Shown: positions 9,843 through 29,797, counted from the first letter of the stretch. The stretch is DNA of 64,000 bases from Candidatus Omnitrophota bacterium (GCA_016201735.1 JACQCH010000017.1:7910-71909), one strand, 5' to 3'. Translations and numbers: made by a program. The notes: a model not told the origin generated them from the letters alone.

Positions 9843-11516
9843 TCAACGCGGCTTCTGATGAGCCTGGCCTTTGTTGGACAGCTTTTCATGCAGGAACTCT
9901 CCATACTGCTGCTGAAGTTGATCCGTCTGCTCCGAAGAAAGAGTCCCTGGGTCGACGATCTTCGCGGTCAGGAAAATCAAGAGATCAATCTTCGCCAGAT
10001 CGGTTGTCGAACGGGAGAAGAGGGGCCCAACCAATGGGAGCTTCCCTAAGAAGGGCAGTCCCACCCGGGACTTGGACTTGACATCCTTCAAGAGCCCGCC
10101 GATCACCACCGTCTCCCCATGCTCCAGGACCACCTGGGTTTCCGCTTCCCGGACGTTCAAGATCGGATACTGGTTCGTGCCCACGACACTCCCCCGAGCG
10201 GAGATGACCGGATGGACGATCATGTCGATGTTGTGCTCGCCGCTGACCTGGGGAACCACGTACAGCTCAATGCCGATGTTTTGGTAATAATCCAGGCTTG
10301 TCGTCGTGGTGGTGGAGGAAGTGCCCGTCACCTGTGTGGAAAGAATCGGATACTTCTCTCCAATTAAGATCCTCGCCTCCTGGCCCGAGAGGGTCATCAC
10401 GTGAGGCGCCGAGAGGGTGTTGGTCCGCACATCCTCCTCCAAGGCCCTTAAGAGCAGTTCGAACTGCGTCCCGCGGAGCTGCCTTAGCACCAGCGACAGG
10501 CCCGTGTTGGCTGAAGTCAATCCGGAGGTCAGAGGAACGAAGCTGGCCGGGCTTAAAACTTGATTCAAGACAGATCCGCCGAATTTGGCCGTATCCGTTC
10601 CACCCACTCTTTTATCCAGAGATTGCAGGCCGAAGGGCCGGGAACTCGTGCTGGAAACGAATCCTTCGGACGAACTCGTGGTGGTGGAGCCGGGTCCTGT
10701 GCCCACCTCCAACCCAAGGTCCCTTAACAGATCGCGGCTGACCTCCATAACACGGGCCTCAATGAGGATCTGCTTCGGGAGAACGTCGATCATCGTTAGA
10801 ATCTTCTCCAGCCGGTCAATGGTGGTCGGGGTATCGGTGATCACTATCGCTTTGGAGCGGGCCTTCTCCCTCCCGGCCCGCTTCCGGTTCGCTTGTTCCT
10901 CCCCTCCTCCTCCCCCGGCCTTGGTCGTCCCAAAGGCCCACCCTTTCTGCCCCGTCATCTCCAACACCGAAATCTTCCCCTGGCCGGTCAGCTGCGGTTC
11001 CAGGAAGGTCTTGACGTCCCCGGCATCCAGAAATTTCAGCCGAATTACCTTGGTCGTCACCGGTTCAATCTCCACCAGCTGTTTCATGGCATCCCGCCTC
11101 GCCTTGAGATCTTCCAGGGTGGTGACGAGAATGACGTTGCCATCCTTCTCATAGCCGTACCCGTAGTTCTTGGCGATCACATCCAGGGCCTGCTCCCACG
11201 ACACCTCTTCCAGATGGATCGTCACCACCCCGGCGATCTCCTTGCCCGTGACGATGTTGACCTTGGCCTTCCGGGCCAAGGCCTGCAGGACCGTCTGAAT
11301 ATCCGCCTCCTTGAAATCGAGGGAAATCGATCCTCCGTCCGGAGGATTTGGAACCGGCGCCTGGGCGACCTGCACCGGTTTTTCTCCCGCTTCACCGGCC
11401 GCGCTCGGCCCCGGCTCTTCTTGAGAGAACAAGCCCGATCCCGTCGTTGTCAGAACCATTCCGATCGCCGTAAGCCAGATTGAAACCCGCTTCGGCAAGC
11501 CGTGGGTTCGTCTCAT
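9843..11516 (-). CDS. pilQ: type IV pilus secretin PilQ
   Basis: 557 aa; signal peptide, AMIN/N-domains, C-terminal secretin domain (GETVVIGGLLKD...RVGLPFLGKLPLVGPLF). Confidence 0.85.
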   Translation of the reverse strand: MRRTHGLPKRVSIWLTAIGMVLTTTGSGLFSQEEPGPSAAGEAGEKPVQVAQAPVPNPPDGGSISLDFKEADIQTVLQALARKAKVNIVTGKEIAGVVTIHLEEVSWEQALDVIAKNYGYGYEKDGNVILVTTLEDLKARRDAMKQLVEIEPVTTKVIRLKFLDAGDVKTFLEPQLTGQGKISVLEMTGQKGWAFGTTKAGGGGGEEQANRKRAGREKARSKAIVITDTPTTIDRLEKILTMIDVLPKQILIEARVMEVSRDLLRDLGLEVGTGPGSTTTSSSEGFVSSTSSRPFGLQSLDKRVGGTDTAKFGGSVLNQVLSPASFVPLTSGLTSANTGLSLVLRQLRGTQFELLLRALEEDVRTNTLSAPHVMTLSGQEARILIGEKYPILSTQVTGTSSTTTTTSLDYYQNIGIELYVVPQVSGEHNIDMIVHPVISARGSVVGTNQYPILNVREAETQVVLEHGETVVIGGLLKDVKSKSRVGLPFLGKLPLVGPLFSRSTTDLAKIDLLIFLTAKIVDPGTLSSEQTDQLQQQYGEFLHEKLSNKGQAHQKPR

Positions 11517-11905
11517 GGAGTTTCCTTCTCCTCTTTTGAGTGGATCAGAGTAAGACGATGGGATTGCCCTTCAACCCAGAGGACGACCGCGTCCGGCTCA
11601 ATCTTTAAAATCTTCATTCCATCAATCTCCTCTTTCTCCCTGACCACCTTTCCGTTGAGGACCGCGTAGGACTCCGCGTGAGGATCAAACACAATTCCCT
11701 GAAGGGTCAACCCTTCAATCCCCCCACCGACTTCCTCATCGAAACCGGGAGGATGCATCCGCTGGCCGTCTTCCGTCAGAAGGGCAACGAAAGGATCCCT
11801 CTTGCCCTTGGCCTGATACTCCGCCCAGACAGACGGCAATCCCAACCCACCGATGAAAGCGCAGAGAAGCCACGCGCAGGAAATCCCGGCGATGGTTCTG
11901 CTCAT
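11513..11905 (-). CDS. pilP: pilus assembly lipoprotein PilP-like
   Basis: Internal start MSRTIAGISCAWLLCAF... (130 aa) giving ATGA overlap with pilO stop; position between pilO and pilQ; upstream part of ORF 11513..12379 is antisense junk. Confidence 0.55.
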   Translation of the reverse strand: MSRTIAGISCAWLLCAFIGGLGLPSVWAEYQAKGKRDPFVALLTEDGQRMHPPGFDEEVGGGIEGLTLQGIVFDPHAESYAVLNGKVVREKEEIDGMKILKIEPDAVVLWVEGQSHRLTLIHSKEEKETP

Positions 11906-12480
11906 TTCTTTGAGTCCCCCGCGGCCGGCAGAAGATAGACCTGGAAGGTCAGGGTAGTCTGGTGGTTCCATACGTCCTTCGGGTTGGCCTGTATCTTCAA
12001 CTCCTGCAGCCGGATCAGACTTTCGGAACGCTCCAAGGCGTCGAGGAATTTCCCGATCGGATGATAGCCGCCCACGGCCTCCACCTGAATCGGCATCTCC
12101 AGAAACCCGGTGGGACTGGGACTCAGTTGACTGAGATTCTCTTTCGGCTTCACCAGAATCAACTTCACTTGAGAGGCGCGGGCCGCCTGGGCGATCATTT
12201 CCAGAAGCTCCGGCAGCTGCTCCTCGGGCGGGTGGGCAGCCGAGAAGATCTCCGCTTGGGCTTTCTGCTTCGCCAGTTCCTCCTCGGCGCCGGGCAATTG
12301 GGTCAATTCCTGACGGGCAAGACCAATCCTCTGTTTCATCGAGATGATACTGGAACGCCCTGCGGCCCACACCCTGCATTGCGGGATGAAAAAGAAACCT
12401 GCCCAGATAAAAAACCCAATCCCCGCTCCCACGGTGGAAAGAATCCTCCGCACACGGGGGTCGGAAAGAGTCAGGGCCAT
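11902..12480 (-). CDS. pilO: type IV pilus assembly protein PilO
   Basis: 192 aa, single N-terminal TM then coiled coil, canonical position in pilMNOPQ. Confidence 0.65.
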   Translation of the reverse strand: MALTLSDPRVRRILSTVGAGIGFFIWAGFFFIPQCRVWAAGRSSIISMKQRIGLARQELTQLPGAEEELAKQKAQAEIFSAAHPPEEQLPELLEMIAQAARASQVKLILVKPKENLSQLSPSPTGFLEMPIQVEAVGGYHPIGKFLDALERSESLIRLQELKIQANPKDVWNHQTTLTFQVYLLPAAGDSKK

Positions 12481-12483
12481 GGA

Positions 12484-13146
12484 TTACAGCCCCTCCGGGA
12501 AAAACAGCATCTCAAAATCGCTGACCTGTTCCTCATGGACCTGCCGCTGCTCTACCGACTTGAGCTCGACGGTACGAAACATCCGTTTAAAATCGGGCTG
12601 CTCCTTCAGGCGCTGGAGGTATCGACTGACAGGAGAACCAGCCCCTGTTTCCGTCACAAAGGCCGACCCCTTGAGGATCAGCATCGGGACAGCCGGCGGG
12701 GGCGGTGGATTCTTCGAAGCCGCGCCCTTTGGAGCGCCCGGTTTGGGTTTTTGCACAGGAGCAGTCGGGTTGGGATGGGCAACGGTTGTTTTAAATTCCA
12801 AGGAGGAAAACCACAGCTGTGAAACCAAGGCATTGGAAAGAAGATTCAGGCGAGGCGCCCACTGCGCCTCGGACGCTTTAAGAGTCTTTTGGAGCGTCGT
12901 TCGATTCTGCAGCGCCCGCAGGACCCCTTGGGTCCTTTGCAACCGGTTCCATTCCGGTTGAATACGGTTCCATTGAGCGGTCAGTCTTCCCAATGTCCAT
13001 GCGTGAAGCCCATTGGCCAGCAGCAAGAGGCAGGAGATGGAAACGACAACGGTGAGGGTCCTCCTCCCGATCAATTTCCAAGGCATCTGACCGAACTGCG
13101 GGATCGCCCGCCGGCCGATCGGAGGCAGCAGATTAATTCGGATCAC
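12484..13146 (-). CDS. pilN: type IV pilus assembly protein PilN (GTG start)
   Basis: VIRINLLPP N-terminus typical of PilN; GTG at 13146..13144 gives GTGA overlap with pilM stop; TM segment then coiled coil. Confidence 0.6.
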   Translation of the reverse strand: MIRINLLPPIGRRAIPQFGQMPWKLIGRRTLTVVVSISCLLLLANGLHAWTLGRLTAQWNRIQPEWNRLQRTQGVLRALQNRTTLQKTLKASEAQWAPRLNLLSNALVSQLWFSSLEFKTTVAHPNPTAPVQKPKPGAPKGAASKNPPPPPAVPMLILKGSAFVTETGAGSPVSRYLQRLKEQPDFKRMFRTVELKSVEQRQVHEEQVSDFEMLFFPEGL

Positions 13147-14219
13147 GACAGCTCCCGCACGGCCAGCCCAACTGCCACCCCGAGACTGTCCCGATTCTGT
13201 TCCATCTGGGCAGGATCTACCTCGGAAGCAAATCCCTCCAGCAGATTCCATTCCTCCATTGGAACTCCCAATCCCTCCTGGATCCATTCCTTGAAGCCGG
13301 CCAAGCGGGAAGATCCCCCGCTTAAGGCAACCCGCTGGATTCTCTGGCCGGATTGATCCTCATAAAAATCAAACGAAGCTCGGCATTGGGTCAGCCATTT
13401 CTCCCACAAAGGCTGCAGGACCGTTTGAACCTCAGCAGATCGCGTTTCCGGGCGACATTTTATCGCCTCCGCTTGAAGGGCGTCAAGCTGCAGGCTCTCC
13501 CCTATCACTTGAGTGAAGGAGCTTCCCCCAACGGAAACCTCACGGGTAAACTGCAGCAAGGAACCCAGAAGGAAAATCAAGATGGTGCCCCGAGCCCCCA
13601 CATGAATCAACGCCACCCCCTCGGAGCCCGGATTGGGGTGGCTCTTTCCCCAGGCATTGGCCAAGGCCAGCGCCTCCAGATCCACCGCATAGGGTGTTAC
13701 CCCGGCGGCCTCAAGCAGCGCCAGGTGAGACTGGATCAATTCCTGGCGGGCCGCCGCCAGCAGAACCTCCATCCGGCCCTCCGGCCGGTCCCCAACGATG
13801 GAAAAATCCAGAGTCGCTTCCTCCAATTTAAACGGGATGTATTTCTCCGCTTCAAAAGCAAGGGCCCCCTTTAATTCCTGGGGAGACATCTTCGGCAGGA
13901 GAACCGATCTTAAGACGGCGCTGGGTCCGGCAACGGCAGTCACCACCCGAACCTGACGGCCGTCCCGAAGTGACTCAACCACCTGCTGGACCGCTTGGGC
14001 CCGCTGGGGCAGCTCGGCCCCGGGGAGAATGGGGGCTGTGGCGAAGCGAACGAGTGGGGGACCTTGGGGGGCTGATTTAAGCAAGACCCCCTTGACCGAG
14101 GTAGATCCTATGTCAAGGCCAATGGAAGGAACGGAGCCTCTAAGGAGCCCCGTCAAGGTTTGCCTGAGACTTGACAGATCAGTGAGTTGGGATATTCGGA
14201 AGCCAGGCACGTTGGGCAA
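13143..14219 (-). CDS. pilM: type IV pilus assembly ATPase-like protein PilM
   Basis: 358 aa; actin-like fold motifs IGLDIGSTSVKGVLL. Confidence 0.85.
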   Translation of the reverse strand: MPNVPGFRISQLTDLSSLRQTLTGLLRGSVPSIGLDIGSTSVKGVLLKSAPQGPPLVRFATAPILPGAELPQRAQAVQQVVESLRDGRQVRVVTAVAGPSAVLRSVLLPKMSPQELKGALAFEAEKYIPFKLEEATLDFSIVGDRPEGRMEVLLAAARQELIQSHLALLEAAGVTPYAVDLEALALANAWGKSHPNPGSEGVALIHVGARGTILIFLLGSLLQFTREVSVGGSSFTQVIGESLQLDALQAEAIKCRPETRSAEVQTVLQPLWEKWLTQCRASFDFYEDQSGQRIQRVALSGGSSRLAGFKEWIQEGLGVPMEEWNLLEGFASEVDPAQMEQNRDSLGVAVGLAVRELS

Positions 14220-14674: not shown

Positions 14675-15973
14675 TTATGTGTTGCTCTCATCGTTCCAGC
14701 TGAGGGTGCTGTAGCTGCCGGTCAACGGGAAGTACGGCGGAATCATGTTCTGCAAACGGGTGTCGTAGTGATAGTCCTTGGTGTACCCGGACAATTTGCT
14801 TCCGGTGCTCCCGCTGAATGTTCCCACAGGACCCCGGTTGGCCTGGTTGAGCCCTCCGTAGAGGGTCAGCGTCCCTTTCGGCGGCCCGATCCAATAGTTC
14901 GACACGGTGAACGACTTGTTCAGCGCCATCACCGACGCTTGAACCGTGATGTTCGTCGGGGCCGACGTGGAGATGATGGCGTTGCCGCCCGCTAAAACTC
15001 CCAAGAGATCGGTGGAATTGGGATTTGTTTGCGGGTTATCCGAATACGTGATCGAATCGACGAAATTAATATCTCCGCTGGCGGCAACGGTCATCTGTCC
15101 CTTCATCGTCCCCTGCAGGGTGAGGGTACCCCCGTTGACATAAACCACTCCGTTGGCGGGAGGGGGCAGCACGGCGTTGTTCAAGCCCGCGCTCGCATTC
15201 GTGACCTGGATGTTCCCGTTCGCCAAGAAGGTGAGCGTGGTGTTGCCGTTAAAGGTCTTGCCTGACGCGGAAGCGGCGGCGGTGATGAGAGCCGCGGGGA
15301 TGCTCGCCGGATACGGCTTGGCTGGAGCGTTCAACTGAAGCCCCCCGTTGAAATTCGGGGCATTCCCGCCGGGAGGAGGCGGGCTGTAGTAGTTGATGCT
15401 GGCGGAAACAGAGCTGACCAGACCGTCAAAGGTCGGCTTCCCATTCATGCTGAACTGGCTGTTCGTGTGCGTGGGCCCCTCGATGTGGTCCACCGTAATG
15501 AACCAAACCTTGGAACCGCTGGAAGATATCTCGCTGTTGGTCAAGTAGGCAAATTCCGCGAAGCTCTGCACCTGGACCACCATATCCGTCCGGCGGACAG
15601 CCGCTCCAGCCCCGGCGCTCGCCCATCCCTGGATGGAATATCGTTTGACGTAGGAGGTTGGATTTGCATCATCCGGGTCGATGGTCACGAGGAACTGCCC
15701 GTTCCCGAGATTCTGGACTCCTCCGTTGATGACGAACGGCGCCGATCCGCCGGGAGGACCCGCTTGACTCTGAAGCCAACGATACCCTTGATCAAGCGCC
15801 GCTTCCGTCAGATAGAAGGCCTGCGTGGATGCCTGCGACCGCTGAGCGGACCATCCCTCCGCGACCGCGTGCGTCATCATGGCTCCCACCAGAATCAGGA
15901 CGACCGCCAACACCATGTAGAAGGTGATCAGGACAAACCCCTCTTCTCCCTGCCGACCCCTGTTTGTTCTCAT
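14675..15973 (-). CDS. PilX-like large minor pilin / pilus-associated protein
   Basis: 432 aa; N-terminus RGRQGEEGFVLITFYMVLAVVLILVGAMMTHA resembles PilX-type pseudopilin anchor; Gly/Asn/Thr/Ser-rich beta region. Confidence 0.5.
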   Translation of the reverse strand: MRTNRGRQGEEGFVLITFYMVLAVVLILVGAMMTHAVAEGWSAQRSQASTQAFYLTEAALDQGYRWLQSQAGPPGGSAPFVINGGVQNLGNGQFLVTIDPDDANPTSYVKRYSIQGWASAGAGAAVRRTDMVVQVQSFAEFAYLTNSEISSSGSKVWFITVDHIEGPTHTNSQFSMNGKPTFDGLVSSVSASINYYSPPPPGGNAPNFNGGLQLNAPAKPYPASIPAALITAAASASGKTFNGNTTLTFLANGNIQVTNASAGLNNAVLPPPANGVVYVNGGTLTLQGTMKGQMTVAASGDINFVDSITYSDNPQTNPNSTDLLGVLAGGNAIISTSAPTNITVQASVMALNKSFTVSNYWIGPPKGTLTLYGGLNQANRGPVGTFSGSTGSKLSGYTKDYHYDTRLQNMIPPYFPLTGSYSTLSWNDESNT

Positions 15974-15985
15974 CGAGCGCCCTCC

Positions 15986-16540
15986 TTAGTTCCTGACCCG
16001 AACCCGGGTGCTTAAAGTCCCCGCGTTTGGAAAATCCCCCGAATTGGCTCCCCGCTGGACCGATACATTGATCTCGATCACCGATGGGGTGGCCGCCTGC
16101 CGGCGGAATTGGAGCGCCGTCACCCCGTTGGCCAAGACCTGATCCACGCCATTCTGGGACCTCAAGATCTGGTTGCCTCCGTTGCCCCCCAGGGAATAGG
16201 TGATCGGAGTCGACCATTCGATAAGACCCGTCGCGTCGTTCAACACGGTCGTCCCCGCATCCGGCCCGTCCTGGGGGATTCGAAAAATAAGGTTTCCTGA
16301 GTACCAGGCCGCACCCACTGGAATCTCAGTCAAATCAGCCAGTTGAGTTGAAATCAGCTCCCGAGACAGGGAATCGATGGCTCTTCGCAGCTCGGTGGAC
16401 GTCGTCATCCGGGCTTGCTCCACCTGCCATGTCCTCTGGCTCGAAGATAAAATCCCCACCACCACTCCGGAAATAATTGCGATGATCGCCATGGAGACCA
16501 GGATTTCAATAAAGGTAAACCCATCCCTTTTCCTCCTCAT
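15986..16540 (-). CDS. type IV pilin-like minor pilin (PilW/PilV-like)
   Basis: Prepilin class III signal RRKRDG|FTFIEILVSMAIIAIISGVVVG with Glu at +5. Confidence 0.6.
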   Translation of the reverse strand: MRRKRDGFTFIEILVSMAIIAIISGVVVGILSSSQRTWQVEQARMTTSTELRRAIDSLSRELISTQLADLTEIPVGAAWYSGNLIFRIPQDGPDAGTTVLNDATGLIEWSTPITYSLGGNGGNQILRSQNGVDQVLANGVTALQFRRQAATPSVIEINVSVQRGANSGDFPNAGTLSTRVRVRN

Positions 16541-16965
16541 CTCTGGGTCACCAATGTATTCACCGCCGCAAACCGGGCCCGGCCCCGCTCCGACCAGTTG
16601 ATCGTCACGGTGACATCCAGCGGATCCGCCGCGGGGTTGACATAGGCCACCGTCACTGCCTCATTATTCAGCGACGTCAGGTTGTTCGCCGTCGCCCACG
16701 CCGTCCAACCCGTCCCGGTCACGGCAGCCAATCCTCCTATCGAGACGTTCCGGATCTGCTCCAACACCGCCCGGGCGTCCGCCATCGCCCGCGTCATGTT
16801 CCGGCTCGATTCGTTCATCGCAGCGATACTCACATAAAATCCGACCAAAGCGGCCGTTGTGATCACGAAGATGCTCACCGTGACCAGGATCTCAATCAGG
16901 GTGAACCCATGCCGCTTCAAAAAACCGGGGCGGCAGCCCCGGAGGACCACCGCCCCTGAATTCAT
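16537..16965 (-). CDS. type IV pilin-like minor pilin
   Basis: Start at ATG 16965 (strong GGAGGAA SD) gives MNSGAVVLRGCRPGFLKRHG|FTLIEILVTVSIFVI prepilin motif. Confidence 0.55.
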   Translation of the reverse strand: MNSGAVVLRGCRPGFLKRHGFTLIEILVTVSIFVITTAALVGFYVSIAAMNESSRNMTRAMADARAVLEQIRNVSIGGLAAVTGTGWTAWATANNLTSLNNEAVTVAYVNPAADPLDVTVTINWSERGRARFAAVNTLVTQR

Positions 16966-16987
16966 TTCCTCCAGCCCTTTTAACTCA

Positions 16988-17458
16988 TTAATCAAGCGGC
17001 GGGCTGGCTGCACCCGCAGCACCCGCGGCCGCGACACGGATGACCCCCGTCTGATCCACAAAGAAACCTCTCGTACCGGTCACAGCGACCGTCACCGGAT
17101 CGGCGTTCAAGGTATACGTGTTGGCTGATCCAAACACATAGGTAAAGTTATACCCCTGCTTCGTCCCGCTGGACAACACAGTGTCAATGTAAGGCGGGTT
17201 TGCAGCCGACAAAACGAGCAAGTTCGCCGGATAGCTTAAAGGGGTCTGATTCGCCCTCCAGCTTTCCAACGACGAAACCAGCGTCCGACACGAGGCGATG
17301 GCCGCTGTCTCATCGGCATTGTGCCGCGCCCGAAGCATATTCGGGATAGCCACCGCTGCAATCAACGCGATAATGGCAACCACGATCATGATCTCAACCA
17401 GCGTGAAACCTTTTGCGTCATGAGAATGATATGCACGCATTTTTGTGTTCTCCTTCAT
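16988..17458 (-). CDS. pilA: type IVa major pilin PilA
   Basis: 156 aa; AKG|FTLVEIMIVVAIIALIAAVAIP prepilin leader and hydrophobic helix, conserved Cys pair absent/variable C-terminal. Confidence 0.7.
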   Translation of the reverse strand: MKENTKMRAYHSHDAKGFTLVEIMIVVAIIALIAAVAIPNMLRARHNADETAAIASCRTLVSSLESWRANQTPLSYPANLLVLSAANPPYIDTVLSSGTKQGYNFTYVFGSANTYTLNADPVTVAVTGTRGFFVDQTGVIRVAAAGAAGAASPPLD

Positions 17459-18787: not shown

Positions 18788-18807
18788 CCCTGATTTCCTT
18801 ATTCATC

Positions 18808-19287
18808 CGAACAAGGCCCGATGCCGGGAGCGGACCGCTCCACGCCAGGCCCCGTCTCGTGGATGGGCTTCTCAGACCCGCTCGACGTCCCCAGCGAGGC
18901 CGTCTCGCTAAACGTCGGCCCTCGCTCTCTCCGCCGAACCCAAGCTCACCGGCGGAGAACCATGCCCGCTCGGGCCTCCGATTGTCTTCGAACCCCCTCC
19001 CCGAGCCGGAGCCATCGCATGAGACCTTCGGGGTGGCAGGGGGCAGGCCAGATTCCGCCAGCAGGGCCGACGTTTCAGGCCCATGCCCTGACCGAATGGG
19101 AACCCAAGCTGAAATGAACGACTTTCCATGGAACGTCCTGTTGGATTCGGCCATCTCCCGATGCTCTGACATGGTCAATGTGAACCATTCATCCGAACAA
19201 GGCCCGATGCCGGAACTGGCCTGCCCCCTGACAGGCCCCCGAAAGAAACAGGGGTGGTACCAGTCCAGCATCGCTGTGAACCATTCA
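18808..19287. mobile_element. MITE-like repeat, copy B, flanked by 9-bp direct repeat TTATTCATC (18799..18807 and 19288..19296)
   Basis: ~480 bp non-coding element filling entire pilB-pilC intergenic space; shares core and terminal sequences with copies at 7630..7876 and 25975..26469; ORF-track ORFs inside (18780..19295, 18859..19665) are repeat-derived. Confidence 0.65.
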
Positions 19288-21012
19288 TTATTCATCGCTG
19301 GTAACCCGCAGGACCTCTTCCACGCTGGTCCGCCCCAAGAGGCAGTGCTCCAGCCCTTCCTGCCGGAGGGTCCTCATTCCGTGCTCCACGGCATAGGCCT
19401 TGATCAAATCCGGAGGGCGTTTGGCGATGATCATCTCTCGGATCGGATCATCCACCAGCATCGCCTCCAAGATGGCGAAGCGGCCGTGGAAACCGGTCTG
19501 CTGACAGGAGAGACAACCCTGGCTCCGATACAGCTGCTTCCCCTGGGGGAGTACAAGGTTCAACTTCTTAAGAACCTCCGGTTTGACCGACTCTTCCTCC
19601 TTGCATTGAGGGCAGAGCTGGCGGCAGAGCCGCTGGGCCGCCACAAAGATAAGGCTCGAGCTTAACAGAAACGGGTCCACCCCCATATCGACGAGGCGCG
19701 TGATGGAGGTAGCGGCGTCGTTGGTGTGAAGGGTGGATAAAACGATCTGCCCCGTCAGAGAAGCCTTGACGGCAATGTCCGCCGTCTCTCCATCCCGGAT
19801 CTCTCCCACCAAGACCACGTCGGGGGCCTGGCGGAGGAAAGCCCTTAAGGCGTTGGAAAAGGTGAGCCCGATGCCGGGGTTGACCTGAACCTGGGTGATT
19901 CCGTCCAATTGATATTCCACCGGGTCCTCGACGGTGAGGATGTTCCTGCCCGGCTCGTTCATCTGGGCAAGCACGGAGTAGAGCGTCGTTGATTTCCCGC
20001 TGCCCGTCGGCCCTGTCACCAGGATCATTCCGAAAGGGCGCGAGACCGCCTTCTGGAAAGCCGCCAGAGAATCCGGAAGCAAGCCGATCTTTTCTAAGCC
20101 CACGGAAAGATTGCTTTTGTCCAGGGCCCGCATGACGATCTTGTTGCCGAATCCGATCGGCAAGCTCGAGACGCGGAAATCCACTTCCCGGTTTTCGACC
20201 CGGACCCGAAATCGCCCGTCTTGGGGAAGCCGGTTCTCCGTGATGTCCAACCGGGCCATGATCCTTAAGCGGGTCGTGATGGAGTTCTGGAGACGCTTTG
20301 GAAACCGAAAGGCCTCCAGAAGGTCCCCATCCACTCGATACCGGACCCGGACATCCTTTTCTTCGGGTTCCAGATGGATGTCGCTGGCCCGGGCCTTCAG
20401 GGCTTCCAGGATCATCGCGTCGACGATCTTGACCACCGGCGCCCGCTTGCCTACAATCCCAAAGGGGGTTAAATCCACAATCTCCTGCTGCTCTCCTCCA
20501 ACCGGTTCCTCTTCAGATTCAGACTTTTCTTCCTCCGAGGAAGATTCCGGTTGAGCCGTTTCCTGCAGAGGCCCGGCGTCGGACCGGTAAAGCTGCTGGA
20601 TCGCCGCGTTGACATCCTCTTCCGAAGCAATCACGGGAGTCACCTGGAGCGAAGTCAGGGTGGTCAGATCATCCAGGGCCAGTACGTTTAAGGGATCCGC
20701 CATCGCCACCGAGAGACAGTTGCTCATCTTGGAGACCGGGACCAGGCGATATTGGCGGGCCATCCGTTCCGGGACCAGTTTGGATAGGGCCGGATCGATC
20801 TGGTACCGGGCCAAGTTAATCGGAGGAATCTGCAGCCCTTTGGACAGCGTGGAAAGCAGGTCCTGCTGTCGGATCAGCCCCTGTTTCACCAACTGTCCCA
20901 GATTCCGGGGATCGCTCTTGGAGGATTTGAGGACTTCCTCCAGTTTCTTTCGGTCGATCCGCCGGTCTTCAACCAGAAGTTCTATGATCCTCTGCCTCAA
21001 GGATTCGGCCAT
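19288..21012 (-). CDS. pilB: type IV pilus assembly ATPase PilB (GspE family)
   Basis: 574 aa; N-terminal GSPII_E_N/MshEN-like repeats (NLGQLVKQGLIRQQDLLSTLSKGLQ), Walker A GPTGSGKST, C-terminal tetracysteine CRQLCPQC...CLSC. Confidence 0.9.
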   Translation of the reverse strand: MAESLRQRIIELLVEDRRIDRKKLEEVLKSSKSDPRNLGQLVKQGLIRQQDLLSTLSKGLQIPPINLARYQIDPALSKLVPERMARQYRLVPVSKMSNCLSVAMADPLNVLALDDLTTLTSLQVTPVIASEEDVNAAIQQLYRSDAGPLQETAQPESSSEEEKSESEEEPVGGEQQEIVDLTPFGIVGKRAPVVKIVDAMILEALKARASDIHLEPEEKDVRVRYRVDGDLLEAFRFPKRLQNSITTRLRIMARLDITENRLPQDGRFRVRVENREVDFRVSSLPIGFGNKIVMRALDKSNLSVGLEKIGLLPDSLAAFQKAVSRPFGMILVTGPTGSGKSTTLYSVLAQMNEPGRNILTVEDPVEYQLDGITQVQVNPGIGLTFSNALRAFLRQAPDVVLVGEIRDGETADIAVKASLTGQIVLSTLHTNDAATSITRLVDMGVDPFLLSSSLIFVAAQRLCRQLCPQCKEEESVKPEVLKKLNLVLPQGKQLYRSQGCLSCQQTGFHGRFAILEAMLVDDPIREMIIAKRPPDLIKAYAVEHGMRTLRQEGLEHCLLGRTSVEEVLRVTSDE

Positions 21013-21018
21013 CGGCTT

Positions 21019-22755
21019 CTACTCCAGGACTCCCACGGTGGTCCGGACGACCTCCTCGAGGGGGAGGATCCCTTCCGCCGCTTTGCCGATCGCATTCTCC
21101 CTCAAGAAAAGAAAACCGGCGGCGCGAGCCGCCTCCTGAAGCTTCACAGAGGAAGCCCCTTCCGCGACCAACCGGCGAAGCTGGGCCGTTAAAGGAATCG
21201 CTTCCAAAAGGCCGATCCGTCCGTCTAAACCTGTCCCTCGACATTCGGGACATCCCTTCCCCTTGCAGTAGTTCCCATTGGGTGGAAGGATCAGCCTTTC
21301 CATAAGCTGTTTGGAGGGATGGAAAATCTGCCGACAATGCGGGCAGACTCGGCGGGGCAGGCGCTGGGCTCCCACCAACAGAAGGGAAGAAGCGATCAGA
21401 TACGGTTCAATGCCCATATTCATCAAACGGGCGACCGCCCCGAGGGCCTCGTTGGTATGAAGCGTGGAAAGAACCAGGTGTCCCGTCAACGCCGCCTTGA
21501 TGGCGATGTCGGCCGTTTCCTCATCCCGGATCTCCCCCACCATGATGATGTTCGGGTCCTGTCGAAGAATCGAGCGCAAAGCGGCGGCGAAGGTCAGCCC
21601 GATCTCCGGGTGGATGGAAACTTGATTGATTCCGGCCAAGTCGTACTCCACCGGGTCCTCCACCGTGACCAGATTCCGCTTTGGGGTGTCGACCAGTTTC
21701 AAGAGACTGTACAGGGTGGTTGTTTTTCCGGATCCGGTCGGGCCGGTGATCAAGATCATCCCATGGGGATGCGTCGCGGCTTCTTTGAGCGCGTTCAGGG
21801 GAACCGGGTCGAATCCAAGCCGCTCCAGGTCCAGCGTCGCCTGATTCTTATCCAGAATCCGCAGACAGACCTTCTCCCCGAAATAAGAAGGGATCACCGA
21901 AACACGGAAGTCGACATCCCTCCCCCGGACGAAAAACTTGATTCTGCCGTCCTGCGGAAGCCGGTGCTCGGCGATATTGAGGGTGGACATCACCTTGATT
22001 CGGGAAACGATCCCTCCCTGCATGAGGGTGGGCAGGGACTTGCCTTCACGAAAGACCCCGTCCACCCGGTACCGGATCCGGAGCCGCTTTTCAAAAGGCT
22101 CGACCAAAATATCGCTGGCCTTCATCGAGACCCCCTCGGCAAGGATCGAATTGGTCAGCCGAACAATGGGGCCCTCTTGAGTCATCCGGATCAGGTCTTC
22201 CAGCTGCTCCGGCTCGGCCGTCTTGGTCTCCGAGACCAGCTCCAGGGTCGAGAGAGACCCCCCTTCTTCGGTAAGCTCCTTGAACGATTCCGACATGACG
22301 ATGCCGTACAATCGATTCAAGGCCTCCTGGATCTCCTCTTTCGTCGCCAGGAAAGGAACCAGGACCATTCCCGTCGTCTGGCTCAAATGATCCAGGGCCA
22401 GCACATTCATCGGGTCCACCATGGCAACCGTCAGTTGGTCGCCCAGGAACGAGACGGGAACGATTTGATAGTGAAAGGCCAGCTTCCGGGAGATCCTCTT
22501 GGTCAACTCCGGATCCATCTCCATCTTGGACAGACGGATGCTCGGAATCTGCAGGGTGTTGCTTAAGACGGCGATCAATTCCTTCGGCTCGACCAATCCC
22601 TGTTCCGTCAGGATCTGGCTCAAAGAGCCCCCCCGCTCCCGCTGCAGAGCCAGCGCCCGCTCCAGGTCTTCGGGCTTGAGGAGGCATTTCTCGACCAGCG
22701 CCTCTCCCAAGCGCTCCTTGACCGTTTTCCAATTCCTGGCACCCGCCTCAGGCAT
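21019..22755 (-). CDS. second PilB/GspE-family secretion ATPase paralog
   Basis: 578 aa; MshEN-like motifs RLGEALVEKCLLKPEDLERALALQ and LSQILTEQGLVEPKELIAVL, Walker A GPTGSGKTT, CPHC...CPEC zinc motif. Confidence 0.85.
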   Translation of the reverse strand: MPEAGARNWKTVKERLGEALVEKCLLKPEDLERALALQRERGGSLSQILTEQGLVEPKELIAVLSNTLQIPSIRLSKMEMDPELTKRISRKLAFHYQIVPVSFLGDQLTVAMVDPMNVLALDHLSQTTGMVLVPFLATKEEIQEALNRLYGIVMSESFKELTEEGGSLSTLELVSETKTAEPEQLEDLIRMTQEGPIVRLTNSILAEGVSMKASDILVEPFEKRLRIRYRVDGVFREGKSLPTLMQGGIVSRIKVMSTLNIAEHRLPQDGRIKFFVRGRDVDFRVSVIPSYFGEKVCLRILDKNQATLDLERLGFDPVPLNALKEAATHPHGMILITGPTGSGKTTTLYSLLKLVDTPKRNLVTVEDPVEYDLAGINQVSIHPEIGLTFAAALRSILRQDPNIIMVGEIRDEETADIAIKAALTGHLVLSTLHTNEALGAVARLMNMGIEPYLIASSLLLVGAQRLPRRVCPHCRQIFHPSKQLMERLILPPNGNYCKGKGCPECRGTGLDGRIGLLEAIPLTAQLRRLVAEGASSVKLQEAARAAGFLFLRENAIGKAAEGILPLEEVVRTTVGVLE

Positions 22756-23203
22756 GGTTGGTTCCGTAGCTGCGCTGGATCGCTTCCATCACATCGCTGA
22801 TCGTGGCCACAAAGACCTGCACCGTGCAGTGGCTGATCATCTCGATGTCTTCCACGGCCTTCATGTTCAGGGGATCGGCCATCGCGACGGTCACGGTGTC
22901 TCCAATCCGGTCCACCGGAACCAAGCAATATTGGCGGGCGACGTTCTCCGGAATCAGGCGCAGCAGATCCCCATCAATGGTGTACCGTTTCAAGGGCAGA
23001 TAAGGGAATCCGTACTGCAGGGTCAATGCCTGCGCCACCGCTTCCTCGCTGGCATATCCCAAATTCACCAGGATTTGGCCCAGCAGCCCTCCCCTCTTTT
23101 CCTGAAGCTTGAGGGCTTCCGCCACCTGATCGGGAGTGACCACTTTCCGCTCCACGAGCAGCTCGCCAATCAGCTTGGTAATGAGCTTCCGATGCGTTGG
23201 CAC
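22748..23203 (-). CDS. standalone GspE/PilB N-terminal (MshEN-like) domain protein
   Basis: 151 aa; KLIGELLVERKVVTPDQVAEALKLQ and LLGQILVNLGYASEEAVAQALTLQ tandem motifs resembling c-di-GMP-binding MshEN repeats; no ATPase domain. Confidence 0.55.
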   Translation of the reverse strand: MPTHRKLITKLIGELLVERKVVTPDQVAEALKLQEKRGGLLGQILVNLGYASEEAVAQALTLQYGFPYLPLKRYTIDGDLLRLIPENVARQYCLVPVDRIGDTVTVAMADPLNMKAVEDIEMISHCTVQVFVATISDVMEAIQRSYGTNHA

Positions 23204-23218
23204 CTTAAAAGACTCCCC

Positions 23219-24286
23219 TCATCCCCTTTGAGTTAACCGGGAGAATTCTTCCGGATCGTGGGAACGGGCAATGGCCTCTTCATGGTTGATGATCTTTCTC
23301 AGATACATCTCCGCCAAGGACTGGTTCATCGTCCGCATCCCTTCCCGCTGACTGGTCTGAAGCACGGAATAAAGCTGATGGGTCTTCGCCTCCCGGACCA
23401 GGGCCCGGACCGCCGAGTTGGCAATCATGATCTCCACCCCCAGAGCCCGGCCGGTCCCCGTCGCCTTTGGAATCAACTGCTGAGTCATCACCGCCAACAG
23501 GACAAAGGAAAGCTGGACCCGGACCTGCTGCTGCTGATGGGCCGGGAACACATCCACGATCCGGTTGACCGTCTGGACGGCGTCCGAGGTGTGCAGGGTG
23601 GCCAGCACCAAGTGCCCTGTCTCCGCGATGTTGAGCGCCGACTGGATCGTCTCCAAATCCCGCATCTCACCGATTAAGATCACGTTGGGATCCTCCCGCA
23701 GGACGTGCTTTAACGCGTTGGTGAAACTTAAGGTATCCGACCCAATCTCCCGCTGATCAACGATCGCTTTCTTATTCGTGTAGACATATTCAATCGGATC
23801 TTCCACGGTAATCACGTGACACTGTCTCTGGTTATTAATCCACTCCACCATCGAGGCCAAGGTGGTGGATTTCCCACTCCCTGTGGCACCCGTAATCAGG
23901 ACCAACCCCTTCTTTCTCCGGCACAACTCCTCTAGGATGGCCACGGGCAGACCGCACTCTCCGAAGTTCCGAATGGCGTGGGGAAGGAGCCGCACGGCGA
24001 CGCTCACCGAACCCCTCTGCAGGAAGACGTTGACGCGGAAGCGCCCCAGCCCTACCACGCCGAAGGACATGTCCAACTCCCTCTGCTTCTCAAAGTGAGC
24101 GATCTGTTCCGGGGAAAGAAGGCTGTAGGCCATCGCCTTGGTTTCAGCGGGCGTCAAGGGAGGATGCTCGGTCCGGATCAGCTCCTCATCCACCCGGAGA
24201 ACCGGCGGAGATCCGACGCACAGGTGCAGGTCGGAAGCGGTCCGCTCCACCATCTGCTTTAACAACTGATCCACAGGCATCGGCAT
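23219..24286 (-). CDS. pilT: twitching motility retraction ATPase PilT
   Basis: 355 aa; Walker A GATGSGKSTT, PilT-type AIRNLIRE-like region (ANSAVRALVREAKTHQL). Confidence 0.9.
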   Translation of the reverse strand: MPMPVDQLLKQMVERTASDLHLCVGSPPVLRVDEELIRTEHPPLTPAETKAMAYSLLSPEQIAHFEKQRELDMSFGVVGLGRFRVNVFLQRGSVSVAVRLLPHAIRNFGECGLPVAILEELCRRKKGLVLITGATGSGKSTTLASMVEWINNQRQCHVITVEDPIEYVYTNKKAIVDQREIGSDTLSFTNALKHVLREDPNVILIGEMRDLETIQSALNIAETGHLVLATLHTSDAVQTVNRIVDVFPAHQQQQVRVQLSFVLLAVMTQQLIPKATGTGRALGVEIMIANSAVRALVREAKTHQLYSVLQTSQREGMRTMNQSLAEMYLRKIINHEEAIARSHDPEEFSRLTQRG

Positions 24287-24299
24287 CGGGTCTTCTCCT

Positions 24300-25730
24300 T
24301 TAGCGCTTGGCGGACTGGATGGCTTCGGTCGCCTTTGCCAGCAGATGGGCTGCGGTGGATCCGTCCAACGGATTCTCGCTGACTCCCGCCGAGACCGACA
24401 GGGGGCAGGAAAGCAAACTGGATCCGGAGGTGAATGGCTGCCGCTCGATCTGCTGGCGGATGGCTTCCGCCAGTTCGATGGCCTCCCGCTTATTCCTCTC
24501 CGGCAGGATGAGGGTAAATTCTTCCGGCCCGGTCCGCCCCACCCGGTCCACTTCCGTCAGATTCTTCTTGAACAATCCGGCCACTTGTTTCAACACTTCA
24601 TCGGCTGCCGAAGATCCATCCACATCTCGGATCCGATCCAGGCTGCCCAGACGGAAGACCGCAAGGGAACAGGAGTGGTGGAAACGGATGGCCCGCTGGA
24701 TTTCCTCCTCCAGCCGGTTCCTCATGTGCTTGGCATTGTACAGACCGGTCAGCTCATCGGTAATCTCCAGCAGGGCGGCCCGTTTCGTCAGAGTGTCGTT
24801 CTCGATCGCGATCCCCATCTGCCGAGCGAAAACCCTTAACAGATTCATCGCGTCTTCCTCGAAAGTGAACCCCTGCTTCTGGTTCGCGGAAATCAGAAGC
24901 GAAACCGCTTTTCCCACCGAGACCAGCGGCTGACAGGCAGCGTTGCGCATGCCAAACAGGCTTTCAAGAAAATCCTTCTCCACCGAAGAACCTGTGCTGT
25001 CGTCAATCACGAGGAGGCGGCGCTCATGGAGGGCGCGGGCAAGCCACGGGGCCATCACCTTCTTATGGAGGAGCAGCTCCACCTGCGTCCGATCCACTCC
25101 CGCGGCGGCGTCAACCAAAAAGACTCCCTCCTCCCCTTCCACAGGCACCATAAGACAGTTGAGCTCCGCTTCCTCCAGGTGGGACAGCTTCTCCAGGATA
25201 AACCCCCGGATCTCCTCCAGACTGGCCGACTGGGTGATGAGGTTGCTCGCATGCAGCAGGTCGGAGAAAGCGAGGATGTGGCGATTGATCTCCAGATTCA
25301 GGAACTTCGTCTGCTCCCCATAAACCTGGAGCTGCCTCATATTGTCCCGCACCCGCTGAGTCATCTGATTCAGAGCCATCCCCAGATTTCCCAGTTCGCC
25401 CGGCTCGTCCGCATCCACCTCTGTGTCAAGATTCCCTTCAACAATCGCCTTCGCCTCCGAAGACATCCGGATCACCGGAAAGACCAGGCCCCTGGCAACC
25501 AAGAAACCCAAAACAGCCAGAACAATGGCCAGGCCGGCAATCACGGAAATCTGTCCGGGGGATTTTGTATGAGGAAAAACTTCACTCCAAAGCACGTAAC
25601 TCAACACCAGAAGCGGCAGGATCGACATCAGGGAGAAAGCAACCATCAGTTTCTCCCGGAGCCCCTGCGGCATGATGGAAAATTTCATGGATTCTGTAGA
25701 TCCTTGCTCTGACACCGCTCTCTTATCCAT
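24300..25730 (-). CDS. HAMP-GAF-GGDEF signalling protein with degenerate active site (GPEEF) and lost I-site; alternative start at 25688
   Basis: TM + HAMP (AKAIVEGNLDTEVDADEPGELGNLGMALNQMTQRV), GAF-like middle, GGDEF domain (ITDELTGLYNAKHMRNRL ... RVGRTGPEEFTLILP); M15 start at 25688 gives ATGA overlap with upstream HTH gene. Confidence 0.8.
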   Translation of the reverse strand: MDKRAVSEQGSTESMKFSIMPQGLREKLMVAFSLMSILPLLVLSYVLWSEVFPHTKSPGQISVIAGLAIVLAVLGFLVARGLVFPVIRMSSEAKAIVEGNLDTEVDADEPGELGNLGMALNQMTQRVRDNMRQLQVYGEQTKFLNLEINRHILAFSDLLHASNLITQSASLEEIRGFILEKLSHLEEAELNCLMVPVEGEEGVFLVDAAAGVDRTQVELLLHKKVMAPWLARALHERRLLVIDDSTGSSVEKDFLESLFGMRNAACQPLVSVGKAVSLLISANQKQGFTFEEDAMNLLRVFARQMGIAIENDTLTKRAALLEITDELTGLYNAKHMRNRLEEEIQRAIRFHHSCSLAVFRLGSLDRIRDVDGSSAADEVLKQVAGLFKKNLTEVDRVGRTGPEEFTLILPERNKREAIELAEAIRQQIERQPFTSGSSLLSCPLSVSAGVSENPLDGSTAAHLLAKATEAIQSAKR

Positions 25731-25873
25731 TGATCAATCTCCTCCTTCTGGAATCTCCACTGCCGGCCGATCTTGGTGGCAGGGATGGTATGGCCCTTGG
25801 CAAGCCGATAAATCGTGAACCGGCTGACCTGCATGTAAGCAGCAACATCTTCAATGGTCATTAATGCATTCAT
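25685..25873 (-). CDS. small helix-turn-helix DNA-binding protein (excisionase/AlpA-Xis family-like)
   Basis: MNALMTIEDVAAYMQVSRFTIYRLAKGHTIPATKIGRQWRFQKEEIDQWIRE; N-terminal extension of ORF 25685..26005 is repeat-derived. Confidence 0.45.
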   Translation of the reverse strand: MNALMTIEDVAAYMQVSRFTIYRLAKGHTIPATKIGRQWRFQKEEIDQWIRERCQSKDLQNP

Positions 25874-25974
25874 AGGCGTACCCATTGGCGAGTATGGCTG
25901 ATTGTTGCTTATCTGTGCAAGACTCTGGCAAATCCACGCAATGTGTACATTGCACAATTGGTACCGCTTCCGGG

Positions 25975-26469
25975 GTCCTGGCGTGGAGCAGTCCGTTCCC
26001 GGCATCGGGCCTGTGTTGGAACTACGAGAGGACCCCGTCTCGGGGGATGGGCTTCTCAGGCCCGCTCGTCGACCCCAGCGACTCAGAGCTTACAAGTGGT
26101 GCGGCCTCCTCTAGCCGCAGCCACGTGGTCGACTTCGCTAATCGAAAATCCCTCGCTCGTCCCCGGAATTTCAGAGCGCGGGGGACACCATGCCCGCTTG
26201 GGATTTTCATTGCCTTCGAACCCCATCCCCCGAGCCGGGGTCCTCGCAGATTCGTCGATCCTCGGGGTGGCGGGGAGCGGTCCGATTCCCGCCAGCAGTG
26301 CCGACGTTTGAGGCCGAGCTCTGTTGAATGGAAACCCATGCTGAAATGTACGACTTTCCATGGAACGTCCTGTTGGGTTTGGCCACCTGCCCATGCTCTG
26401 ACATGGTGAATGTGAACAACCCATCCGAACAAGGCCCGATGCCGGGAACGGACCGCTCCACGCCAGGAC
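25975..26469. mobile_element. MITE-like repeat, full-length copy C with ~45-bp terminal inverted repeats
   Basis: Left end GTCCTGGCGTGGAGCAGTCCGTTCCCGGCATCGGGCCTGTGTTGG vs right end CCGAACAAGGCCCGATGCCGGGAACGGACCGCTCCACGCCAGGAC (about 41/45 complementary); no credible ORF; contains sub-repeat module (26078..26130) that also occurs inside aroA and an alpha/beta hydrolase gene. Confidence 0.7.
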
Positions 26470-26510
26470 CCCGAAGGAACTAGGAGAGGATTAAATTTCT
26501 GGGAGGTGGA

Positions 26511-29311: not shown

Positions 29312-29797
29312 TTAACGAAGGATTCGTTGGAGTCTCGGAAACCCCCAGGCCGCGCAGATCCCGTTGACCCCCATGGCGACCGGGAGAGTCCAGAGAACCC
29401 ACCGGTTCCACGCAACTGCCGGGTCCGCCAGGGTAAGGAGACCTCCAAACAGAATCCCGCTGGCTCCGCTTAAGATTCCCGCCACAATCCCTTGGACCAG
29501 CGGGTCCTCCCGTTCCACCAGATGCCGGGTCGAGTTTAAGATCCAGCCGATCAGCCCAAAGGTGCAGGCGAAACCCCCCAAGAGGGAACCGGTCCCTAAA
29601 TCCCGAAGGAACCCTAATCCCATTCCGATCGCCCAAAGAAACCTGCCGGAAGGAAGACGGAATCCAAGGAAGATCAACAACAGCAGGAGCGGATCCACCA
29701 CCCAGCGCAGAAGCGGAACCCGGGAAAGAAACAGAAGGTCAACCCCCCAGAAAAGGAAGATCCAAAAGGGGAGGGAATGGGTGATCCGTTCACTCAC
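29312..29797 (-). CDS. mreD: rod shape-determining protein MreD
   Basis: 161 aa polytopic membrane protein immediately downstream of mreC. Confidence 0.65.
   Translation of the reverse strand: MSERITHSLPFWIFLFWGVDLLFLSRVPLLRWVVDPLLLLLIFLGFRLPSGRFLWAIGMGLGFLRDLGTGSLLGGFACTFGLIGWILNSTRHLVEREDPLVQGIVAGILSGASGILFGGLLTLADPAVAWNRWVLWTLPVAMGVNGICAAWGFPRLQRILR

Follow-up and report, generated by a model that had tools for sequence, protein, structure and literature searches.

The 64,000-nucleotide stretch of Candidatus Omnitrophota bacterium DNA analysed here (GCA_016201735.1 JACQCH010000017.1:7910-71909; hereafter the window) carries a complete type IVa pilus cluster (Table 1). Its motor module includes a small gene encoding a stand-alone MshEN domain, here called free MshEN, followed by two paralogous extension-type ATPases, PilB1 and PilB2; the small protein is a candidate sensor of cyclic di-GMP (c-di-GMP) for the pilus motor. 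Gene identities are based on the listing of open reading frames (ORFs) and on profile searches of the window against Pfam and NCBIfam. The first-pass annotation, generated by a model from the sequence alone, had recognised two PilB/GspE ATPases with N-terminal MshEN-type motifs beside a separate MshEN-like gene devoid of an ATPase domain, and a HAMP-GAF-GGDEF protein. The ORFs exist at its coordinates, on the minus strand, and the profile searches bear out these domain calls: each ATPase has one N-terminal MshEN and a T2SSE domain, and the small ORF encodes a genuine free-standing MshEN domain. Three of its statements need correction: a complete PilT gene, which it had overlooked, separates the GGDEF gene from the small ORF; the small protein consists of more than two motifs, as a complete C-terminal subdomain is present too; and the motifs of the ATPases are degenerate at the decisive positions, as described below.

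The free MshEN gene starts with GTG, has the ribosome-binding site GGGGAG 9 nucleotides upstream, and its stop overlaps the PilB1 ATG by 8 nucleotides (ATGCCTGA). Because of this stop/start overlap the two genes are probably translationally coupled, and co-transcription with PilB1 is proposed. The encoded protein is 100% identical to the NCBI entry Candidatus Omnitrophica bacterium HY211_03185. Comparison with PF05157, which the first-pass annotation had called for, gives a strong match (79 bits, cutoff 23.1, E=2.6e-22) over residues 64-149; this is the complete C-terminal T2SSE_N1-like subdomain, the portion that the Pfam model matches. The c-di-GMP motif profile NF053729 matches residues 12-63 with 60.4 bits (cutoff 38). 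Residues 8-147 align to N-domains of known structure, those of PilB from Geobacter (residues 11-147) and Myxococcus, of Thermus PilF, and of Vibrio MshE, with E-values, taken for single domains, down to 1e-25; the alignment spans residues 19-157 of 5ZFR and extends to 5HTL, 6EJF, and 8PDK. An AlphaFold2 model built from a 46-sequence alignment retrieves Vibrio cholerae MshE with bound c-di-GMP (5HTL) as the top Foldseek match, at a template modelling (TM) score of 0.71-0.76, followed by the GSPII domains of PilF and the N-domain of Xanthomonas PilB. The C-terminal subdomain shares with the ATPases the conserved PilB N1 motifs IPENVARQY and VAMADPLN.

The free MshEN family is widespread in the phylum. 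More than 120 protein clusters of ∼150 amino acids (aa) are 68–87% identical to the window copy. A scan of one genome per species with free MshEN returned more than 570 matches, and the best 80 all come from Omnitrophota or from Planctomycetes-Verrucomicrobia-Chlamydiae (PVC) bins labelled 'Planctomycetia', including the complete genome of Ca. Velamenicoccus archaeovorus. In total, 82 distinct genome loci carry free MshEN at 42–75% identity, with a steady length of ∼145–160 aa. On average, free MshEN proteins are 56% identical to the window copy, against 45% for the N-domain of PilB1, 42% for that of PilB2, and 59–60% for the ATPase domains, a ranking which suggests that the free domain is under stronger constraint than the tethered N-domains, nearing that of the ATPase cores. 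Within the window, free MshEN is 34–38% identical to the N-termini of the adjacent ATPases and so arose by duplication of the 5′ region of pilB or of the whole gene.

The same paralogy could be expected if the small ORF were the remnant of a degraded third ATPase, a possibility raised by the first-pass annotation, or a mis-called start of PilB1. The probability of either is negligible. The ORF is intact, of steady length, and has its own ribosome-binding site; its sequence is better conserved over the 82 species-level genomes than the ATPases' own N-domains; its overlap with PilB1 leaves no room for ATPase-like sequence between the two; and PilB1 has a complete MshEN domain of its own. There is no trace of a degraded third ATPase, and a pseudogene or fragment is excluded by the conservation, the steady length, the ribosome-binding site, and the PilB1 overlap.

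The c-di-GMP site of MshEN domains consists of two 24-residue half-motifs, RLGxxhhxxGhhxxxxLxxxLxxQ, joined by a five-residue spacer (Wang et al. 2016, PMC5013675). In this site Gly-3 provides backbone hydrogen bonds to guanine, Gln-24 contacts the ribose-phosphate, and Leu-2, Leu-17, and Leu-21 form hydrophobic platforms. Mutations of MshE illustrate the importance of these residues: binding is no longer detectable in G11L, is weakened 72-fold in G40I, and is reduced ∼10-fold in Q32A and Q61A (PMC5013675). Position 1 was later extended to arginine, lysine, or leucine, giving the consensus (R/K/L)LGxxhhxxGhhxxxxLxxxLxxQ (Neissner et al., PMC11731258). In that work the GSPII-B domain of Thermus PilF, with Lys and Leu at position 1, binds with a dissociation constant (Kd) of 6 nM and its Leu/Leu variant K167L with 2 nM, and there is no binding to the GSPII-A domain, in which one half-motif is good and the other degenerate.

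By these benchmarks, the site of free MshEN is predicted to be intact and of the high-affinity type. The key positions read L-I-G...V...L..Q and L-L-G...V...L..Q; both halves have Gly-3 and Gln-24, and in both the positions 2, 17, and 21 are hydrophobic. Position 1 is Leu in both half-motifs (L11 and L40), matching the configuration of PilF K167L, and in the second half-motif it is Leu in 78 of the 82 free MshEN proteins, as in PilF GSPII-B. When the full core is defined as ten positions, namely Gly-3, Gln-24, and the hydrophobic residues 2, 17, and 21 of both half-motifs, 77 of 82 free MshEN proteins carry it. None of 77 PilB1 and none of 67 PilB2 orthologs does so.

Judged from their residues, the tethered MshEN domains of PilB1 and PilB2 are present as domains with a degenerate site. 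In the window, the first half-motif of PilB1 is good (RLG...Q), and the second has Ser for Arg-1, Ser for Gly-3, and Thr for Gln-24. The first half-motif of PilB2 has Ile for Gly-3 and Ser for Gln-24, and its second half-motif, which keeps Gly-3, combines a one-residue deletion with Gly for Gln-24. Among the orthologs, 74 of 77 PilB1 proteins have another residue in place of Gly-3 in the first half-motif (Thr, Val, Gln, Ile, Ser, Lys, or Asn). In the second half-motif of PilB1, Ser predominates at position 3, and position 24 never carries Gln. No PilB2 ortholog has Gly at position 3 of the first half-motif. Both half-motifs retain Gly-3 in one of 77 PilB1 and in none of 67 PilB2 orthologs. PilB1 has retained hydrophobic residues at the fold-core positions 6, 7, 11, and 12, and PilB2 has done so less uniformly, so the loss is concentrated at residues that contact the ligand. 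The MshEN-type motifs that the first-pass annotation had assigned to both ATPases are therefore real at the level of domain and profile, but at the residue level the key Gly and Gln are lost phylum-wide. As the tethered domains lost these residues, its notion of a competitor of c-di-GMP-binding motors is replaced here by that of the only predicted c-di-GMP-competent MshEN of the module.

Retention of the motif in free MshEN together with its loss in PilB1 and PilB2 is the pattern that selection for ligand binding would predict. The motif could instead be kept for the stability of the fold in a ligand-independent structural subunit, such as an assembly factor or an adaptor that bridges PilB1 and PilB2 or, in the manner of Thermus PilF, serves as a third N1 domain. 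Binding of c-di-GMP is lacking in many MshEN domains (XpsE, Pseudomonas aeruginosa PilB, and PilF GSPII-A), no cyclase is found nearby in the window, and three MshEN domains per locus resemble the three cis domains of PilF. This explanation is nevertheless improbable, as Gly-3 and Gln-24 contact the ligand and are dispensable for the fold, and it is exactly these residues that are lost in PilB1 and PilB2 and kept in ∼94% of the species with free MshEN.

The two ATPases match T2SSE with E=4e-132 (PilB1) and 1e-133 (PilB2) and MshEN with E=1e-19 and 1e-21, respectively, and are 41% identical to each other. Walker A, the Asp box, Walker B with the catalytic Glu, the Arg fingers, the His box, and the Cys4 zinc motif are kept phylum-wide in both, with 90–100% conservation in the 77 PilB1 and 67 PilB2 orthologs. 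Both proteins look catalytically competent, and neither resembles a dead subunit. One consistent difference between the two catalytic sites lies in the His box: PilB1 has TGHLVLSTLHT, and in PilB2 (residues 420-431) the first His is Gln in the window and in 78% of orthologs. With 610.3 and 608.1 bits the ATPases stay below the equivalog cutoff (675.65) of TIGR02538, the type IV-A PilB model, and with 569.5 and 580.3 bits they also stay below that of GspE (630.25). By best match and gene context, both are classified as PilB-like but divergent.

Relatives, on which the first-pass annotation had wanted its three-gene arrangement checked, keep MshEN-PilB1-PilB2 in every locus long enough to show it. 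In 81 of 82 loci the next gene after free MshEN is PilB1, and on every contig that reaches far enough the order is PilB1-PilB2(-PilC); the MshEN-PilB1-PilB2 core is a phylum-level invariant. The upstream side is more variable: PilT precedes free MshEN in 42 loci, 24 have the degenerate GGDEF gene in this place and 9 have RodA, and in the other 7 the contig ends there, which leaves 75 informative loci. Seven loci (L066, L068, L071, L073, L074, L078, and L080) carry a second free MshEN between PilB2 and PilC, and in L085 (110-1037) the second copy is a tandem duplicate ahead of PilB1. The motif is intact in all second copies, with the full ten-position core in seven of seven and an aromatic residue or Leu at position 1 of the second half-motif.

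This variation in neighbours bears on the partner of free MshEN. An effector of c-di-GMP or cyclic GMP-AMP (cGAMP) with a target other than PilB, either PilT or the degenerate GGDEF protein, or a general nucleotide buffer, would fit the frequent proximity of PilT (42 of 75 loci) and of the GGDEF gene (24 of 75). PilT has no N1 domain of its own, and MshEN can bind cGAMP too, according to PMC5013675. Such a role is distinctly improbable, since only the partnership with PilB1-PilB2 is invariant, and many lineages have no PilT, and many no GGDEF gene, in the MshEN neighbourhood.

A c-di-GMP-switched brake seems unlikely, though less so than a target other than PilB. In such a mechanism, free MshEN would inhibit extension by competing with the N-domains of PilB1 and PilB2 for docking on the PilM stator or PilC platform, or by forming dead-end heterodimers with them, and c-di-GMP would switch its affinity. 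With the same N1 motifs as the ATPases, its C-terminal subdomain could take the same site; N1 domains are thought to touch the stator, and small protein inhibitors of PilB are known, namely CpiA, Tip, and Aqs1 (review, PMC11656802). Against this, in every MshEN system characterised, pilus assembly is promoted when c-di-GMP binds, and the tight coupling to PilB1 and the universal co-occurrence with the motor suit a subunit better than an antagonist.

The reading favoured here, for which the chances appear about even, is that free MshEN is the c-di-GMP-sensing N1/MshEN domain of the extension motor, present as a separate subunit and acting in trans on the twin ATPases. It builds on the structure of the genes, the identity of the domains, the fold, the state of the motif, and synteny across the phylum, all established by computation; that c-di-GMP is bound, with which partner free MshEN acts, and in which direction, we infer. 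In the proposed mechanism, an ancestral Omnitrophota pilB would have given rise to three genes, two of them encoding the full ATPases PilB1 and PilB2, which may act jointly or as a mixed hexamer, and the third encoding a copy without an ATPase. The tethered MshEN domains would have lost the Gly and Gln that contact c-di-GMP, and the third copy, on losing its ATPase, would have kept a complete, arginine-less site of the kind that is of high (nanomolar) affinity in Thermus PilF. Free MshEN is predicted to bind monomeric c-di-GMP between its two half-motifs and, once liganded, to associate with the PilB1/PilB2 motor or with the motor's docking site on the PilM/PilC platform, so that pilus extension would be coupled to the c-di-GMP level. 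By analogy with all cis MshEN domains characterised to date (MshE, Myxococcus xanthus PilB, and PilF GSPII-B), extension would be expected to be activated at high c-di-GMP. Most economically, the three copies would have split the functions of the ancestral pilB domain by domain, leaving the motors with putatively ligand-blind N-domains. A more specific version, in which the motor is split into three co-evolving parts, with the two active PilB proteins working as one (possibly hetero-hexameric) motor and a diffusible MshEN of nanomolar affinity docking in trans, is offered as a tentative and rather doubtful extension of this proposal.

Several observations weigh against this interpretation. The argument rests on residue benchmarks transferred from Vibrio and Thermus proteins. 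The first half-motif of free MshEN deviates from the consensus at one position, where Gly-10 is replaced by Lys (Gly in 51 and Lys in 23 members of the family), and position 1 of this half-motif is variable in the family (Q39, K10, R9, T7, and others). The window PilB1 is among the 3 of 77 orthologs that keep Gly-3 in the first half-motif, reaches 48–50 bits with NF053729, above the curated cutoff, and might still bind c-di-GMP weakly. At E≤1e-3, the same profile matches 82 of 83 free MshEN, 78 of 78 PilB1, and 61 of 68 PilB2 proteins and does not separate the paralogs. The AlphaFold2 model is only moderately confident, with a predicted local distance difference test (pLDDT) score of 64 overall; its four helices (residues 12-64) reach 75–92, and the C-terminal subdomain is poor. 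Free MshEN could equally be an inhibitor, or have a partner other than PilB. The weakest link of the argument is the source of c-di-GMP: a search for an active diguanylate cyclase with a family hidden Markov model, run on all ORFs of the window and of 84 loci (∼1.2 Mb), finds only the degenerate orthologs belonging to the cluster itself.

An exception is found in the Ca. Gygaella loci L071 (13894-18530, Ca. Gygaella obscura) and L073, from a relative, where the pilus cluster includes a 1387-aa GGDEF-AAA_16-HEAT protein, encoded between PilB2 and the second free MshEN. It combines an N-terminal, near-canonical GGDEF domain (DxD, RxxD I-site, AGDEF) with a STAND-type AAA_16 ATPase and HEAT repeats, a composition that makes it a possible local source or receptor of c-di-GMP. 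PilZ genes and GGDEF domains also occur elsewhere in Omnitrophota genomes, according to a preprint on giant genes. As regards receptors within the window, no gene of the module has a PilZ or EAL domain in Pfam, and an Rfam scan of the whole window returned no matches, and hence no c-di-GMP riboswitch or other known RNA. NF053729 was dropped as a discriminator of the three paralogs in favour of key-residue counts, having matched nearly all of them.

The membrane protein encoded by the GGDEF gene of the window has two transmembrane helices separated by a very short loop, followed by HAMP, GAF, and GGDEF domains. Its signature is GPEEF, the metal-binding DxD is changed to R-L-G and the guanine-binding 'ND' pair to R-D, and the N-terminal DxLTGLxN alone is kept. 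The I-site position, five residues ahead of the signature, reads TEVD, in which the Arg of RxxD is missing. Of 53 orthologs, a single one has the GGDEF signature and 10 have the Arg of the I-site; Asn, Lys, or Arg mostly takes the place of the first Asp of DxD. The protein is predicted to be catalytically degenerate across the phylum and not an active diguanylate cyclase. The first-pass annotation had proposed a non-catalytic sensor or receptor; its account of GPEEF, of the lost RxxD, and of a missing catalytic function stands (non-catalytic in 52 of 53 orthologs), and nothing supports a c-di-GMP receptor, the I-site being missing. In the mechanism favoured here, the protein would serve the module as a sensor or scaffold without catalytic function and would not be the source of the signal, a role suggested by its context.

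Table 1. Features of the type IVa pilus cluster and its surroundings; positions are counted from the first letter of the window.
Feature	Position	Strand	Evidence or composition
Type IVa pilus cluster, complete		-	HTH_17, HAMP-GAF-GGDEF, PilT, free MshEN, PilB1, PilB2, PilC, pilins, PilMNOPQ
HTH_17 protein (MerR/excisionase-type, DNA-binding)	25685..26005	-	PF12728 E=1.9e-17, residues 48-97
Membrane HAMP-GAF-degenerate GGDEF protein, 476 aa	24300..25730	-	Pfam HAMP, GAF_2, GGDEF
PilT-type retraction ATPase, 355 aa	23219..24286	-	TIGR01420 474 bits (cutoff 319.1); T2SSE
Stand-alone MshEN protein (free MshEN), 151 aa, no ATPase	22748..23203	-	Four-helix bundle (N-terminal) and T2SSE_N1-like subdomain (C-terminal)
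Predicted c-di-GMP-binding motif of free MshEN, 53 residues	23015..23173	-	Residues 11-34 LIGELLVERKVVTPDQVAEALKLQ, spacer 35-39 EKRGG, residues 40-63 LLGQILVNLGYASEEAVAQALTLQ
PilB1 extension-type ATPase, 578 aa	21019..22755	-	One MshEN (half-degenerate motif) and T2SSE
PilB2 extension-type ATPase, 574 aa	19288..21012	-	One MshEN (degenerate motif) and T2SSE
Non-coding repeat filling the ∼500-nucleotide PilB2-PilC gap	18804..19239		Repeat families D1, D3, D4, I1, I4, I6; four-copy alignment
PilC/GspF platform protein, 401 aa	17582..18787	-	T2SSF x2; GspF and PilC NCBIfam models
Pilin block: three prepilins and DUF4900 protein	14675..17458	-	N_methyl matches; DUF4900
Major pilin	16988-17458	-	N_methyl
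Two more prepilins	∼16537-17061, 15986-16540	-	N_methyl
DUF4900 protein, 432 aa	14675-15973	-	DUF4900 profile
Alignment and secretin subcomplex	9843..14219	-	PilM to PilQ, profile matches
PilM	13143-14219	-	
PilN-like	12484-13287	-	
PilO	11902-12480	-	
PilP-like (C-terminal part of ORF)	11513-12379	-	
PilQ secretin	9843-11516	-	

The remaining genes of the cluster are those of a type IVa pilus. PilT has T2SSE as its sole specific Pfam domain, without N1/MshEN, and belongs to the PilT/PilU family by the membership score of the model. The small HTH_17 gene and the beginning of the degenerate GGDEF gene overlap; the true start of HTH_17 is likely an internal Met near 25885. Homologs lie just upstream of the GGDEF gene in 10 of 55 loci, all of the closest clade, and were also called in L003 and L004; confined to this clade, HTH_17 was rejected as a universal member of the module. 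The protein may regulate the module's transcription locally. A scan for promoters and terminators found nothing informative within the module except a strong hairpin resembling an intrinsic terminator (16927-16956, minus strand; 13 pairs, 10 of them G-C, then a T-run) just after the major pilin. Because this hairpin sits within the ORF of the next prepilin, the real start of that gene probably lies further downstream.

Upstream of the pilus module the window contains genes for cell shape and wall synthesis. AroA, MreB, MreC, MreD, PBP2, and RodA occupy 26511-33111 on the minus strand, with RodA, PBP2, and MreDCB directly upstream of the module. PBP2 and RodA, the sole cell-shape references used, are found again at this place in most of the related loci. 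The linkage between elongasome and pilus genes is kept phylum-wide, and the series mreBCD, PBP2, RodA, degenerate GGDEF gene, MshEN, PilB1, PilB2, and PilC provides a synteny marker for the phylum.

The PilB2-PilC gap, which is ∼4 nucleotides in relatives, is filled in the window by a repeat element. At least four intergenic copies of this element (∼430–500 nucleotides) are present, at 7658-7857, 18804-19239, 25971-26473, and ∼60495-60969 (reverse), each with a terminal motif of 40–50 nucleotides (CATCCGAACAAGGCCCGATGCCGGGA...). The copy at 25971-26473 has 42-nucleotide terminal inverted repeats that are 98% complementary, and two copies bracket the motor module. The element has no Rfam match and looks like a miniature inverted-repeat transposable element. 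The ORFs 18780-19295 (no Pfam match) and 18859-19665 within it are probably spurious. Further away, a 2016-aa ORF without a Pfam match (46670-52720, minus strand) lies in a stretch of markedly lower G+C content (0.51–0.54 against ∼0.60) and is followed by an AAA_14/DUF4143 ATPase gene (53046-54272); the region may be an acquired island, or the ORF may be one of the large ORFs typical of the phylum.

Stand-alone MshEN domains are a class already known. MshEN matches comprise 21,923 representative clusters at E≤1e-3, in which stand-alone and multi-copy forms are abundant and many proteins have 145–160 aa, and two further examples lie in pilus clusters. The plain stand-alone architecture is absent from Supplementary Table 4 of Wang et al. 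2016 (PMC5013675). No description of free MshEN as a PilB cofactor was found in the literature searched, and the protein is absent from a 2024 review of PilB cofactors (PMC11656802). Likewise, no description of the MshEN-PilB1-PilB2 arrangement of Omnitrophota was found in the literature searched on pili, PilB, and c-di-GMP of this phylum, in the phylum survey (PMC10066038), or in the giant-gene preprint.

The N1/MshEN domains of type IV pilus (T4P) and type II secretion ATPases are poorly understood, being flexible and rarely resolved, the link from c-di-GMP to the motor is unclear, and the formation of mixed hexamers by paired extension ATPases is an open question (PMC11656802). Omnitrophota are uncultured, mostly ultra-small, and probably host-dependent, and type IVa pili have been proposed to serve their attachment (PMC10066038). 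The module would be the main predicted control point for piliation in the phylum. It would naturally separate sensing from catalysis and provide clean reagents for binding and docking experiments, as well as a concrete example of duplicated genes dividing functions by domain. If the proposal is true, free MshEN would be the first case of a regulatory N-domain of the PilB family acting as a free subunit, which would let the role of the N-domain be tested apart from catalysis. More generally, profile matches to a 'c-di-GMP motif' do not tell binding from non-binding MshEN domains, and residue-level checks are needed.

Among known proteins, P. aeruginosa PA3740 (MshEN_N with a divergent T2SSE_N1) is similarly small and ATPase-less and has been listed among likely c-di-GMP binders with an effect on surface motility. 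The C-terminal subdomain of PA3740 has diverged strongly, whereas that of free MshEN is canonical and highly conserved, and PA3740 is not placed in a pilB cluster in the literature examined. Acinetobacter baylyi has, like the present system, two extension ATPases per pilus system, PilB and TfpB, and a small protein, CpiA, that acts on the motor. However, PilB and TfpB are not adjacent tandem paralogs, and CpiA is an unrelated inhibitor with no link to c-di-GMP. The FimX-PilZ-PilB system of Xanthomonas and Pseudomonas offers a likeness that is functional only: a PilB with a non-binding N-domain (PA4526 does not bind) receives its c-di-GMP input from a separate protein that docks there. The trans sensor in that system is a degenerate EAL protein with a PilZ adaptor, in contrast with the paralog of the PilB N-domain and the two motors found here.

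The closest relatives of free MshEN in domain and fold are the cis-acting domains of V. cholerae MshE (5HTL), M. xanthus PilB, and Clostridium perfringens PilB2, which share the layout of half-motifs with a five-residue spacer and the setting in a T4P cluster. In Omnitrophota the domain is a separate polypeptide, Leu and not Arg starts both half-motifs, and the MshEN domains of the adjacent ATPases are degenerate. PilF of Thermus thermophilus has three consecutive GSPII/MshEN domains, of which A does not bind c-di-GMP, B binds with a Kd of 6 nM, and C with ∼0.5 µM. As in PilF, one pilus motor is associated with three MshEN domains, not all of which have a binding-type site (predicted in the present case from sequence), and the motif of free MshEN (EKRGG-LLGQILV...) is arginine-less like that of GSPII-B. 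The three domains of PilF lie in cis on one ATPase, whereas those of the Omnitrophota module are distributed over three genes, one of them encoding a free domain of the binding type and two encoding tethered domains of the non-binding type.

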